Position numbers and translations under genes: made by a program
Notes under the pieces: generated by a model
Told to the model about the DNA's origin: nothing
The model's database searches: none
What the model saw: the letters and a program-made list of their open reading frames with translations, nothing else
Shown here: positions 39,927 to 45,849 of the stretch, one piece after another
Numbering within the stretch: the stretch's first letter is position 1
How the letters are laid out: every line of letters starts with the position of its first letter
Source: Escherichia coli 042
Lineage (GTDB): Bacteria; Pseudomonadota; Gammaproteobacteria; Enterobacterales; Enterobacteriaceae
Direction: 5' to 3' (one strand)
NCBI RefSeq assembly: GCF_000027125.1
Contig: NC_017626.1
Length of the DNA stretch: 64,000 nt

Positions 39927-40901
39927 ATGACAAAATTACAACTTAAGTACCGGGAGTTAAAAATTATCTCGGTAATCGCTGCCAGTGAAAATATCAGCCA
40001 TGCCGCGACTGTACTTGGCATCGCACAGGCCAACGTCAGCAAATATCTTGCTGATTTTGAATCAAAAGTGGGTTTAAAAGTTTTTGACCGAACCACCCGA
40101 CAACTGATGCTCACACCTTTTGGCACCGCGCTATTACCGTACATCAACGACATGCTGGACAGAAACGAGCAGCTTAATAATTTTATTGCAGATTATAAGC
40201 ATGAGAAACGTGGTCGGGTCACCATCTACGCCCCAACCGGCATAATTACCTATTTATCCAAACATGTAATCGATAAAATTAAAGATATCGGTGATATCAC
40301 CTTATCGCTAAAAACCTGCAATCTTGAGCGTAATGCCTTTTATGAAGGCGTCGAATTTCCTGATGATTGTGATGTTTTAATCAGCTATGCCCCACCAAAA
40401 GATGAATCGCTGGTTGCCAGTTTTATTACCCAATATGCCGTAACCGCTTATGCCAGCCAGCGCTATCTTGAGAAACATCCCATTAGCCGTCCTGACGAAC
40501 TCGAACATCACTCCTGTATTTTGATCGACTCGATGATGATCGACGACGCGAATATCTGGCGCTTCAACGTCGCCGGGAGTAAAGAGGTGCGGGATTATCG
40601 CGTGAAGGGAAATGACGTTTGCGACAACACGCAATCGGCGCTGGAGCTGGCACGAAATCACCTGGGGATTGTGTTTGCGCCAGACAAAAGTGTGCAGAGC
40701 GATCTGCAAGACGGCACGCTGGTGCCCTGCTTTCAGCAACCCTATGAATGGTGGCTGGATCTGGTGGCTATCTTCCGTAAACGGGAATACCAGCCCTGGC
40801 GGGTCCAGTATGTGCTGGATGAAATGCTGCGTGAAATTCGCCACCAGCTTGCTCAGTCGCAGCAACTGCGGCCTGAACAAGCGGCGGAAAGCGAAGATTA
40901 A
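39927..40901 (+). CDS. yiaU: LysR-family transcriptional regulator YiaU
   Basis: 324 aa, N-terminal LysR HTH (…[23 protein letters not shown]…). Confidence 0.9.
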
Positions 40902-42034
40902 TGATCGAGATAAAGGTAATGCACCCAACTGGTCATGCGTAACAGCACTTTGCGCATCACCGAGACATGGCTGAAATGATCAGAGTAAACCGCCACCTGG
41001 GCGTAAATACCGTCTGGTAAAGCGCTCAAATCAGTGTGCTCATCCAGTTCAATGGTCGCGATAACGCCATCTGAACCCGGCGCTGTGTTTAACGTCTGTA
41101 AGGTGCCGGTCGACTGATAAGCTCCGCCGGGAACGGCTGGACTAATGGCTGCCAGCTTACCGCTGAATACCTTACCTGGCAGAGCATTAAACACCACTTC
41201 CGCATCGTCGCCAGGAGCCAGTCGCAGCAAGGAGTTCTGACGGAACTGCGCCACGATTTGTCGTTTCTGATCGGGTATAAACACCATCACCGGACGTAGC
41301 GGCAGCGACGCGGCATAGGTACCCGGACGAATCAGGACCTGAGTCACATAACCATCGCTCGGCGCACGCACTATCGTCTGCTCAAGGTTATATTTTGCTT
41401 CCGCGAGCTGCGCTTTCAGGCTGGCGATTTGAGAATGTTCACCCAACACCAGGCTATCCAGCTGGCTCTGGATCTGTTTTTGTTCCGCTGCCGATGACTT
41501 TACGGAGGCTTCCTGCGCCAGATAATTTTGCCGCGCCACATCGATATCGCGTTCTGAAAACGGGTTTACTTTCGCCTGGCTGCCGCGTGCGTAACGCTGA
41601 TACTCTTTAGCGAATTTATCCCGCGTGGCCTTTGCCTGCTGAGTATTCGCCACCATCTCATCTAACTCTGCGCCCAACGCCCGCTGTTTATGTTCTGCGG
41701 TAACGATATCCGCCATCAGCCGATCCACCCGCGCCTGATAACGCGTCGGGTCCAGTCGAAATAGCACTTCACCTTTTTTAATCAGCGTATTTTTCTTATC
41801 CGTCACTTCAATCACCACACCAGTCACCTGTGGGACAACAGGAATAGAAATAACCGCTTTTTGCGCTTTAAAGGTATACGGATGGTTATAGTTCATTAAC
41901 AGAATTAGACCGCTGACAATAAATATTCCACCCAGGGCCGCTGTGGGAATGGTCCATTTATTTACGGGAATTTTGAAGATCTTAAACATTGCCCATGCAA
42001 AAGCCACATAGGTCAAAATAATCAGTAAATCCAT
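40898..42034 (-). CDS. yiaV: HlyD-family membrane fusion-like protein YiaV
   Basis: 378 aa, N-terminal TM helix, coiled-coil, barrel-sandwich hybrid; overlaps yiaU stop by 4 bp (convergent). Confidence 0.9.
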
Positions 42035-42039
42035 AAGTA

Positions 42040-42363
42040 TTACTCGGCAGAAGAGGATTTGATGTCGGCGAGCTGTTTCTCCAGCCCGGCAATGCGCTGT
42101 TGCAGTTGCATAACGGATGAATCATGGCTTTGCATTCCCCATCCCCGCTCCGGGCGGTAAAGCGTGGCCCAAATCCACAAAAACGGCCAGATAACATGTA
42201 ACGTAAAAAGACTCACCCAACCAGCAACATGAATGGCGTCGGCATGAGGATGATTACGTTTTTTAGCAATCAGGTAGGGAATATCATGTAAAATAATAAT
42301 CCCATAAAATATCACCAGAAATACAAAAATAAGCACTCCCAGCGCAAAATAGTCCAGGAACAT
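42040..42363 (-). CDS. yiaW: Small inner membrane protein YiaW (DUF3302)
   Basis: 107 aa from [30 protein letters not shown]; track ORF over-extended by 10 codons. Confidence 0.88.
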
Positions 42364-42476
42364 ATTTCCCTCAAAGAATATAAAAAAGAACAATTAACGC
42401 ATATTATGAAATGCCATGATGCAGTGCAATTTCCTTATTTATATAACGACATATTGTTTTTTATATACTTTCTGAA

Positions 42477-42689
42477 GTGTGCTGCGTGGCTTTTCAACAG
42501 GTCGAGGTTTATCATATTGAAATAATGGAACTATTGACCAAGCTAATGAATAACTCCAGTAAAACATCCACAGTACAGATAAAGCGTATTAAACCTTCAA
42601 TTATCTACCGTTTATTGCTGATTGGCCTCGGAACGCCAATGGTGATTTACGGCCTGGTTTGCCCGCTCACCATCGAAACGCGAGATTAA
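42477..42689 (+). CDS. Candidate small membrane protein (hypothetical; coding status uncertain)
   Basis: 70-codon ORF (or 54 from internal MELLTK...) with one hydrophobic helix (RLLLIGLGTPMVIYGLVCPL); weak RBS; divergent from yiaW. Confidence 0.2.
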   Translation: MCCVAFQQVEVYHIEIMELLTKLMNNSSKTSTVQIKRIKPSIIYRLLLIGLGTPMVIYGLVCPLTIETRD

Positions 42690-42779
42690 ACTCCTGGCAA
42701 AACACGCCCCAGAAACGCACTTCTGTTGGCGTAGTCTGGGTTATTGCGCACGTAGGTTTAAAACGTAAATTGTAACAAC

Positions 42780-42885
42780 GTGCGCTTTGTTTATGCCGGA
42801 TGCGGCGTGTACGCCTTATCCGGCCTACGGTCAGGTCCCCGTAGGCATGATAAGACGAGTAAGCGTCGCATCAGGCAATGAATAC
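42780..42885. repeat. REP/BIME cluster downstream of aldB
   Basis: gccggatgcggcgtgtacgccttatccggcctacg and cgtaggcatgataagacgagtaagcgtcgcatcaggca palindromes. Confidence 0.7.
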
Positions 42886-42907
42886 CCAATGCGACCAGCT
42901 TCTTATA

Positions 42908-44446
42908 TCAGAACAGCCCCAACGGTTTATCCGAGTAGCTCACCAGCAAGCACTTGGTTTGCTGGTAATGCTCAAGCATCATTTTGTGGGTTTCGCGGCC
43001 AATGCCTGATTGTTTGTAGCCACCAAACGCCGCATGTGCCGGGTAAGCGTGATAACAGTTGGTCCACACGCGCCCGGCCTGAATGCCGCGCCCCATCTTA
43101 TAGGCCAGATTACCGTTGCGGCTCCAGACACCCGCGCCCAGGCCATATTGCGTGTCGTTCGCCAGCTCCAGCGCTTCTTCCATCGTTTTGAAGGTGGTCA
43201 CCGCCAGCACCGGGCCAAAAATCTCCTCCTGGAACACGCGCATATTATTCTGACCAAACAGAATCGTCGGTTCGAGGTAGTAGCCGTCTTTCAGTTCGCC
43301 TTCCAGCAGCTTGCGCCGCCCGCCGGTGAGCACATCTGCGCCCTCTTTTTTACCAATATCAATGTAGTTGAGGATGGTTTCCAGTTGCCCGTGCGAAACC
43401 TGCGCGCCCATTTGCGTCACGCTGTCGAGTGGGTTACCGCTACGAATGCTTTCGACACGGCGGATGGCGCGTTCCATAAAGCGTTCGTAGATAGACTCCT
43501 GCACTAAAGCACGGCTTGGACAAGTGCAAACTTCGCCCTGGTTAAAGGCAAACAGTGCAAAGCCTTCCAGCGCTTTATCGAAAAAGGCATCTTCTTCATC
43601 CATCACATCAGCAAAGAAGATATTTGGGGATTTGCCGCCCAGCTCCAGCGTCACCGGAATAATGTTTTGCGTGGCGTACTGCATAATTTGTTGGCCCACT
43701 TCCGTTGAGCCGGTAAACGCCACTTTGGCGATGCGTTTCGAGGTCGCCAGATATTCGCCAATTTCCCCACCAGCGCCGTTAACCACGTTCACCACGCCCG
43801 GCGGCAGTAAATCACCGACGATTTCCATTAGCAGCAGTACAGAAAGCGGGGTAAGACGTGCGGGTTTCAGCACCACACAGTTGCCCGCCGCCAGCGCGGG
43901 AGCCATTTTCCAGCTCGCCATCAGCAGCGGGAAGTTCCACGGAATAATCTGCCCCACCACGCCTAACGGTTCGTGGAAGTGATAAGCCACAGTTTCGCTA
44001 TCCACTTCACTAATACCGCCTTCCTGCGCCCGAATACACGAGGCAAAATAGCGAAAATGGTCAATTGCCAGCGGCACATCAGCAGCACTGGTTTCGCGAA
44101 TGGGTTTGCCGTTATCCCAGGTTTCAGCGGTCGCTAACAGTTCGAGGTTCTGCTCCATCCGATCGGCAATCTTAAACAGAATCGCCGCGCGATCCTGCAC
44201 CGAGGTATGCGCCCATTTATCTTTCGCTTTATGCGCGGCATCCAGCGCCAGATCGATGTCTCGTTTGCCCGAAGACGCCACTTCGCACAGTAGCTGCCCG
44301 GTCACCGGCGTCAGGTTCTGGTAATAGTCGCCATCGGCAGGGGCTACCCATTCGCCGCCGATAAAGTTGTCGTAGCGGGCTTTTAACTTAAGAGGAAAAC
44401 CATACTCGCCGGGCTGAACACGTGCTGAAGGGGGATTGTTGGTCAT
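42908..44446 (-). CDS. aldB: Aldehyde dehydrogenase B
   Basis: 512 aa from [17 protein letters not shown] with AGGAG SD; ALDH family; track ORF over-extended by 30 codons. Confidence 0.96.
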
Positions 44447-44553: not shown

Positions 44554-45849
44554 CTACAGCGGGTAATGTGCGACGTACACGGCTTGCTGGTCATTAATTT
44601 TCTTCTCTTGCGCAAACCCTTCTTTAACAATCGTCCGTAAATCAGCTCGAGCCGTATTATCAGAGACGCCCAGGCTCGCGCTAATTTCAGCAACTGTGTA
44701 CTCTTTCCCCGGATTGGCGAGCATCACATTCAGGAGCGTTACCTGGCGAGGATTCAAGCGTTTAAGCACGCCAGAGCTAAACAGCACACTATCGAATTTT
44801 GCGCTTCGTTGCATAATTTCATCAATATGCTGCTGCCAGTTTTGCAAAGCACGTTTAATGACACCCGCCTGATAATCAAGGAAATAAGTCAGATCCATAC
44901 CATCTGATTCAGTGTACTGGCAGCTGGCGGCATATTTGACCGGTGCAGCATGAAGCAAACGGCTGATGGAAATATATTTAAAGACATCGTAGCCCGATTT
45001 CAGCATATACCAGTAAAACAGTGCCCGACTGGTGCGCCCGTTGCCATCGCGAAATGGATGTTCATGGGCCAGCATAAAATGCAGAATGCAGGCACGGATT
45101 AACGGGTGAATATACCCTTCATGGCTGTTTAACCACTGGCAAACTTTTTCCAGCCGTTCCAGCAACAATGCCGCAGCGGGCGGTTGGTGCACAATATTGC
45201 CGTCATAGTCGGCGATCACAACATCATCTGTTTCACGAAATTCTCCCGGACGATATTTCGCGTCATTGATTCCACCCATACCAATGGCATGTAACTGGCG
45301 AATAAGCGCAGTCGTCAGCGGTTCTGCGAGTAAGTGCGGAATTTCCGCCATCAGCCGGGCATTTCCCGCAATCATATGCTCGTCTTCAGTGCGTGGCGAC
45401 CGCCCTGTTTCCAGCATTTTTCTCGCCACCAGCGTTGTAGTATTCGCACCTTCCAGCTGGGAGCTGGTGATCGGCTCTTCCAGGCGTAACTGGCTTAACT
45501 CGGCTCCGGCCCCGCGTAACCGTTCAGTCTGATCTTTCAGCGCCAGCGCGGTAGCACGTTTGTCGACAAGCTCGCACGCTTCTGCAATCACCGGGGTAAT
45601 GTTGAATCCGGCCTGTTCACCCGCTTCATTGCAATAATTAATTCGTTGGATCGCCGCGTTGCGCGCCAGACGGGTAAGCGTCCACGCCACATCGACGTTT
45701 TCTCCTTTTTTGATGCGGTACTGCAACTCATCAAAAGGTAGATAACGTCCTTTTTCATCGGTAACCCGGTTAAAGCGCAGGTGGGCCTGGAGTTCCTCAC
45801 CCGATAAGTGTGATAAAGGAATAAGTCCGGGAGGTGATTTGATAGCCAT
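44554..45849 (-). CDS. Fic-family protein (class II, internal inhibitory helix) with C-terminal wHTH-like domain
   Basis: 431 aa; canonical Fic active-site motif [12 protein letters not shown]; upstream inhibitory-type motif SSQLEG ([S/T]xxxE[G/N]); C-terminal segment [39 protein letters not shown] resembles a winged HTH. Not in the recalled K-12 aldB-yiaY gene order. Confidence 0.85.

Follow-up and report, generated by a model that had tools for sequence, protein, structure and literature searches.

Does the short open reading frame (ORF) between yiaW and aldB in Escherichia coli 042 encode an overlooked small membrane protein? An earlier note on this DNA had raised this possibility and had itself doubted the coding status of the ORF. 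We analyzed the locus within a window of 64,000 nucleotides (the whole stretch studied, contig NC_017626.1; all window positions are counted from its first letter). We conclude that the ORF is very probably the remnant of an ancestral 104-residue membrane-protein gene that suffered an in-frame 171-bp deletion and is now unconstrained and decaying.

The ORF and its surroundings

The features of the locus are collected in Table 1. Two in-frame ATGs lie inside the 70-codon ORF, giving 54 codons from 42525 and 47 codons from 42546. The 47-residue core contains one hydrophobic stretch at residues ca. 17 to 39 (Kyte-Doolittle, 19-residue windows, maximum 2.0), which corresponds to the first transmembrane helix of the ancestral protein. 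Shine-Dalgarno pairing was poor at all three candidate starts, with the best anti-Shine-Dalgarno duplexes reaching +2.7 kcal/mol for GTG 42477, -2.7 kcal/mol for ATG 42525 and -3.3 kcal/mol for ATG 42546. The ORF sits just upstream of two REP sequences, GCCGGATGCGGCGTGTACGCCTTATCCGGCCTAC and its inverted copy, which are imperfect palindromes of ca. 35 nt that match the REP consensus. As the ORF with its internal start, the single helix, the location in the spacer and the weak ribosome-binding site were all verified, the description given in the earlier note was accurate.

Table 1. Positions of the ORF, its parts and its neighbors in the window.
Feature	Position	Strand	Remarks
70-codon ORF	42477..42689	+	GTG 42477 to TAA 42687-42689; start is ATG in K-12
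54-codon CDS, WP_154675833.1 "hypothetical protein"	42525..42689	+	PGAP call in a 100%-identical strain
47-codon core	42546..42689	+	homologous to codons 1-39 and 97-104 of the intact 104-codon gene
Retained first transmembrane helix, residues 17-39	42594..42662	+	hydropathy; AF2 helix 17-44 in the intact protein
Deletion junction, one hybrid copy of the repeat	42648..42662	+	TACGGCCTGGTTTGC in the window; DNA alignment and repeat comparison
yiaW (DUF3302), divergent neighbor and selection control	42040..42363	-	strong purifying selection in the same strains
aldB, convergent neighbor and syntenic anchor of the intact gene	42908..44446	-	Escherichia, C. amalonaticus, Franconibacter
yiaWV promoter position proposed for K-12 (CAGACA-17-TATAAA)	42460..42488	-	PMC3946193, mapped via K-12
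Two REP sequences between ORF and aldB	42795-42828, 42841-42876		read from sequence

The length of the ORF by itself is within chance expectation. In 2,000 shuffles of the 544-bp yiaW-aldB spacer with dinucleotides preserved, the longest ORF had at least 70 codons in 29%, at least 54 codons in 66% and at least 47 codons in 82% of cases. A simple promoter and terminator scan of positions 42000-43000 found no sigma-70-like site on the plus strand for the ORF and one such site on the minus strand, below the shuffle mean. At the K-12 equivalent of the ORF (3754542-3754754), the PIRT-seq tables held no entry, nor did any fall there among the entries listed in the Cappable-seq and acid-stress Ribo-seq tables. 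A literature search by the RefSeq accessions of the ORF found no paper mentioning them.

The 5' part of the ORF overlaps regulatory DNA. From a genomic SELEX site of RNA polymerase, Shimada et al. (2014) proposed a yiaWV promoter in K-12 with the sequence CAGACA-17-TATAAA, and H-NS binding was reported within the yiaW-aldB spacer (PMC3946193). The K-12 -35 box maps to 42483-42488 in the window, inside the N-terminal extension of the 70-codon ORF, where the window strain carries CACGCA. On the other side of the spacer, directly beyond the RpoS-dependent aldB, the window contains a Fic-family ORF of 431 aa (44554-45849, minus strand), as does ST131 (L005); in K-12, yiaY and not a Fic gene adjoins aldB.

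Across eight aligned strains, substitutions were more frequent within the ORF interval than within either yiaW or the spacer downstream. Codons 1 to 23 of the 70-codon form were broken in four of these eight strains: a stop interrupts them in L003 and L008, and L006 and L007 combine stops with the loss of 1 bp. In L006 and L007, TAA also comes directly after the 42525 ATG. K-12 has ATG at the 42477 position and GTG at the 42525 position. Of the whole ORF, the 47-codon core alone stays open across the 14 E. coli alleles sampled, and its family start (MNN...) is shared with Citrobacter amalonaticus and Franconibacter, both of which have a better Shine-Dalgarno sequence. The 70-codon form considered earlier is thus not conserved as a unit, its first 23 codons being interrupted in half of the strains compared and overlapping the proposed K-12 promoter. 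The N-terminal extension is best read as non-coding yiaW upstream DNA, and chance in-frame starts in the yiaW promoter region may lengthen the 47-codon ORF to 54 or 70 codons in some strains.

An intact gene and its deletion in E. coli

Relatives were compared by fetching 80 yiaW loci of other species and searching them with the ORF. At the same place and in the same orientation, E. whittamii (L013, 2504-2887) and Escherichia sp. E1V33 (L011, 777-1160) carry an ORF of 127 codons, 104 from the MNN methionine, which starts like the E. coli ORF and likewise ends in ...LVRPLTIETRD. In C. amalonaticus, an orthologue of 104 aa occupies the slot between aldB and yiaW, and in Franconibacter a member (WP_024553640.1) lies in the order avtA -> gene -> <- aldB-yiaY-selB.

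The intact gene also persists within E. coli. Among 5,426 complete E. coli genomes, it was present in 28, while ca. 3,770 (ca. 70%) carried the deleted form and the region was absent from ca. 1,600. All 28 intact copies are called by PGAP as 104-aa proteins (WP_001064340.1 or WP_001064341.1), strains 6409 and EC42405 being examples. By DNA alignment, exactly 171 bp, equivalent to codons 40 to 96 of the intact gene, are missing from the window and K-12. Residues 1-39 and 40-47 encoded by the window ORF align with intact residues 1-39 and 97-104, and over the first 39 residues the ORF is 97% identical to the intact E. coli allele. The window ORF thus matches the family at these two segments only and not end to end (ca. 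95 of 104 positions), and is no intact family member.

In intact alleles the missing segment is bounded by two 15-bp imperfect direct repeats, TACGGCCTGGTTTGC and TACAGCCTGGTTCGC, 171 bp apart. Judged by these alignments, most E. coli lack a 171-bp in-frame segment whose breakpoints fall within the two repeats, and the loss may have occurred by slippage or illegitimate recombination between them. The alternative polarity, with the 171 bp as an insertion, is argued against by the full-length orthologues of C. amalonaticus and Franconibacter. Two junction variants segregate in E. coli, ...GGCCTGGTTTGC|CCG with Cys in the window and ...GGCCTGGTTCGC|CCG with Arg in K-12, the junction bases being ...GTTTGC in the window and ...GTTCGC in K-12-type alleles. 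These could stem from two deletions with different crossovers, or from a single event whose junction was later altered by a point change or by gene conversion. The deletion removed a conserved loop (W-N...H-G) and the whole of helix 2 with its G-L-W motif, so that helix 1 is now joined to the last eight residues. The 47-codon ORF survives because the deletion was in frame.

Other losses were seen at this locus. Escherichia sp. MOD1-EC7003 has lost the 5' half of the gene instead. In ST131 and related strains (L004, L005; compared with window 40898-42700), which we take to belong to phylogroup B2 (L004 probably), the whole yiaV-yiaW block is absent, and L004, a hicAB strain, retains no more of the ORF than its last 13 codons. 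In the genomes without yiaV-yiaW (ca. 1,600 of 5,426), aldB has an MFS transporter and a GH127 glycoside hydrolase as its direct neighbors, with the rearrangement breakpoint inside the ORF.

The conserved anchor of the gene is the 3' end of aldB, as indicated by the Franconibacter gene order. The gene converges on this end in the window, E. whittamii, E1V33, C. amalonaticus and Franconibacter, while the Rahnella member lies elsewhere. Among yiaW loci, the gene adjoins yiaW only in Escherichia and C. amalonaticus, so a conserved partnership with yiaWV was rejected; the divergent neighbor emphasized at the outset gave way, by synteny, to aldB as conserved partner. Taken at the level of homology and gene order, the ORF derives from a 104-residue membrane-protein gene convergent on the 3' end of aldB in Enterobacteriaceae.

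The intact protein family

An exhaustive HMMER profile search of 1.84 billion representatives returned 256 at E <= 1e-3 and 66 at E <= 1e-10. Most of the 256 family representatives are 100 to 125 aa long and match end to end. Members come from C. amalonaticus and C. farmeri (cluster P0195), C. telavivensis, Franconibacter, Rahnella and many metagenomes. Seven columns of the family alignment are invariant or nearly so (G27, G40, G46, G59, G88, L89 and W90). AF2 modeling of the intact protein with a 60-sequence alignment (mean pLDDT 80) gave helices at residues 17-44 and 59-95 and a short beta-hairpin loop at 51-56, so that the protein is predicted to form a two-helix membrane hairpin.

Searches of Pfam, NCBIfam and PDB sequences with the remnant, the intact protein and the family found nothing above noise, and Foldseek of the AF2 model against the PDB gave no match with E < 4. 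The name DUF3566 (PF12089), which UniRef gives to one Franconibacter member, was not reproduced in scans of the remnant, the intact proteins and individual family members, and PF12089 was missing among the best 25 of the 48 Pfam families matched by 60 family members (E <= 1). DUF3566 is similar in being a small bacterial membrane domain to which no function has been assigned.

Strong purifying selection acts on the intact gene. Its alleles, compared in pairs, gave dN/dS values of 0.09-0.17, and their mutations (21 synonymous, 9 nonsynonymous) departed from neutrality with p = 5e-7; E. whittamii and the intact E. coli allele differ by 19 synonymous and 6 nonsynonymous changes. The family is widespread, under purifying selection and uncharacterised.

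Several further sequences were noted during the family search. P0074 (68 aa, JGI metagenome) joins the N-terminal helix region directly to a C-terminal ...GLWVYSRFRPLRVKVFD and, from its sequence, resembles the product of a separate internal deletion that a family member underwent in another lineage, and P0107 (49 aa) is a truncated family member. In a Pantoea MAG (L075, 1051-2715, minus strand), a 554-aa protein is divergent from yiaW; its N-terminus presumably resembles PqiB. A match between this Pantoea N-terminus, MENNAETTPVNKIKR (MENNAETT..KIKR), and the family N-terminus, MNNAETSSTVSLKRIK, was discarded as probable chance, as its 10 of 36 identities (E = 0.007) came from a single post hoc comparison.

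Selection on the remnant

We counted substitutions in the 47 codons of 14 deleted alleles (9 haplotypes), comparing each with one reference, the intact E. coli allele, and not along a phylogeny. In the deleted alleles, 14 mutations were nonsynonymous and 7 synonymous (ratio 0.66; p = 0.25 against neutrality), these counts being small and neighboring changes in one codon being scored separately. In the same 47 codons, intact alleles carried 5 nonsynonymous and 13 synonymous mutations (ratio 0.13; p = 3e-5 against neutrality), a significantly different distribution (Fisher p = 0.025 against the remnant). In the control gene yiaW of these strains, 2 mutations were nonsynonymous and 19 synonymous (ratio 0.03; Fisher p = 0.0003 against the remnant). 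Purifying selection was thus detected in the intact alleles (omega 0.09-0.17) and not in the remnant, and the synonymous-substitution check that had been suggested earlier came out no different from neutral. The remnant retains only one of the seven most conserved family columns, G27, and even this residue is Val in the O157 and O145 alleles.

Disrupted forms of the ORF occur in natural isolates. Public protein sets contain three frameshifted alleles (P0030, P0037, P0039), one stop-loss allele (P0027) and at least five IS1 read-through fusions at five different codons (P0028, P0036, P0038, P0040, P0045). The IS1-fused clusters start with '...RSHWSTSKTPSYTKSVSWQHH', which is the translated IS1 terminal inverted repeat, and the fusions fall at window ca. 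42555-42590 in the 5' part of the remnant. As five different codons are involved, IS1 appears to have inserted repeatedly and independently into this AT-rich, H-NS-bound spot. Foreign N-termini other than IS1 were seen in P0041, P0042, P0044 and P0046, and IS5 could not be confirmed as their source in P0044 and P0046. Another entry, P0051 (124 aa, Escherichia sp. R-CC3, 374-bp contig), is called "aldehyde dehydrogenase, partial" and is a chimera of the remnant ORF (...RPLTIET) with the AldB C-terminus; an assembly error or a local rearrangement probably explains it.

Many E. coli small proteins bind larger membrane proteins. The most serious alternative to a decaying remnant is that the 47- to 54-residue single-helix peptide is a functional small inner-membrane protein, a shortened derivative with a kept or gained role such as binding of this kind. 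We consider this unlikely, given the neutral-like substitutions and the disrupted alleles found among natural isolates. Points in its favor are the open frame in 14 of 14 alleles and the prevalence of the deleted form among complete E. coli genomes; yet the absence of premature stops in the core is unremarkable, since only 0.84 were expected among 21 mutations (P(0) = 0.42), and the segment is wholly missing from ca. 1,600 genomes. That PGAP calls a CDS in most genomes, and that one source labels the product "membrane protein" (P0021), also fits a functional protein, whereas the start is not conserved: ATG and GTG are swapped between strains, TAA follows the 42525 ATG in L006 and L007, and PGAP starts differ. 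The weak Shine-Dalgarno sequence and the lack of a plus-strand sigma-70-like promoter in the simple scan likewise speak against it. A further argument in favor is the helix core, KRIKPSIIYRLLLIGLG, which is nearly invariant among deleted alleles. This could reflect residual constraint on the peptide, or constraint on the DNA through yiaW upstream regulatory or H-NS sites.

Overall, we give a small chance to a residual or new function of the remnant peptide. We likewise give low odds to a broader pair of possibilities: either the remnant is translated and kept since helix 1 alone still works, perhaps by binding the partner of the ancestral protein or as a dominant-negative, or the intact family serves an undiscovered function that most E. 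coli now do without. Retention of helix 1 for function would, if true, make this a natural instance of a small protein arising when a larger one loses an internal segment.

It is very improbable that the ORF is merely a chance frame in AT-rich regulatory DNA, consisting of yiaW promoter and H-NS-bound spacer with no coding history. Frames of this length were indeed common in the shuffled spacer, the RNA polymerase SELEX site and H-NS binding lie in the same spacer, and codons 1 to 23 do behave as non-coding DNA. However, the core is homologous, in protein and DNA, to both ends of a selected intact gene with 256 family representatives, which demonstrates a coding history for the 47-codon core and leaves the chance frame as an explanation for codons 1 to 23 only. 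The least probable reading is that of a toxin-antitoxin locus on the chromosome whose product would be a hydrophobic peptide resembling type I toxins. It is brought to mind by a small hydrophobic product in a strain-variable spacer beside REP elements and by the type II cassette hicAB in the adjacent position in some strains, but the ancestor is a 104-aa two-helix protein at a vertically conserved site and no toxin family, neither Pfam nor NCBIfam gave a toxin match, Rfam returned no antitoxin, sRNA or leader in 41500-43500 at E <= 1, and hicAB is an independent insertion downstream of the ORF.

The same Rfam scan returned only REP-like matches, to the REP-derived naRNA4, which fall on the REP sequences below the gathering score (27-37 bits against 59.5). 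The hicAB cassette was found between the ORF and aldB in L091 (1812-2424), L011 (370-780; Escherichia sp. E1V33) and L004 (2528-3140), and in L091 the hicB stop overlaps the 3' end of the intact ORF by 4 nt on the opposite strand.

The remnant reading, which we prefer, accounts for the ORF as follows. After the in-frame deletion, the remaining sequence would now be free of protein-level constraint and decaying. If its weak ribosome-binding site supports any translation, a functionless single-helix peptide would be the probable product. What had been taken for a possible small membrane protein does descend from a genuine membrane-protein gene, but the present ORF is an internally deleted relic with neutral-like substitutions and disrupted alleles. 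Similarly, the frame, whose loss in relatives had been named as grounds for refutation, is kept there, but as part of a longer gene that is truncated in E. coli.

Annotation of the ORF

How the ORF is annotated depends on the record. The interval 42300-42950 is 100% identical to E. coli strain BEC1-S17-ESBL-09, and PGAP calls the ORF a "hypothetical protein" in most RefSeq E. coli, with 47, 54 or 67 codons depending on the strain. A protein-level search of 5.8 billion sequences gave 46 matches, all from E. coli, with called lengths of 38 to 115 aa. No gene is annotated at this position in the K-12 MG1655 (NC_000913.3), O157, O145 and DLI.6n records. The description as unannotated therefore holds for these four records but not for most genomes. 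PGAP calls the remnant an ordinary CDS because the in-frame deletion left no frameshift or stop to flag. The remnant stands as a "hypothetical protein" with three start choices across thousands of E. coli genomes in RefSeq, while the curated K-12 record has nothing. An accurate label would be pseudogene or remnant of a WP_001064340-like gene.

In conclusion, the remnant is a case of ordinary gene decay with modest annotation consequence. When a single-helix intergenic ORF keeps its frame throughout a species, it can still be a fossil that an in-frame deletion has left open, and such fossils are revealed only via intact orthologues together with substitution counts.

Comparison with known systems

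Compared with the intact 104-aa proteins (WP_001064340.1, WP_001064341.1, P0195 and WP_024553640.1), the remnant is alike in position and orientation but lacks residues 40 to 96 and six of the seven conserved columns, and its substitutions are neutral-like. A second comparison is with validated small proteins. The catalogues of Hemm, Storz and Weaver reportedly include E. coli single-helix small membrane proteins of <=50 aa with direct evidence of synthesis by tagging or ribosome profiling. A single helix and a poor Shine-Dalgarno sequence are shared by many of the validated E. coli small proteins, and the ORF resembles them in size, in its one predicted helix, in its intergenic site and in its weak Shine-Dalgarno sequence. 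Unlike them, it shows no purifying selection. Direct evidence of its synthesis was not found among the entries listed in the expression tables searched above. The closest parallels in the neighborhood are the K-12 pseudogenes ysaC and ysaD, 3 kb away. Whereas the yiaW-aldB remnant is absent from the curated K-12 record, these two are flagged as pseudogenes in NC_000913.3, and they too are short leftover frames of degraded genes in the 80-81 min region.
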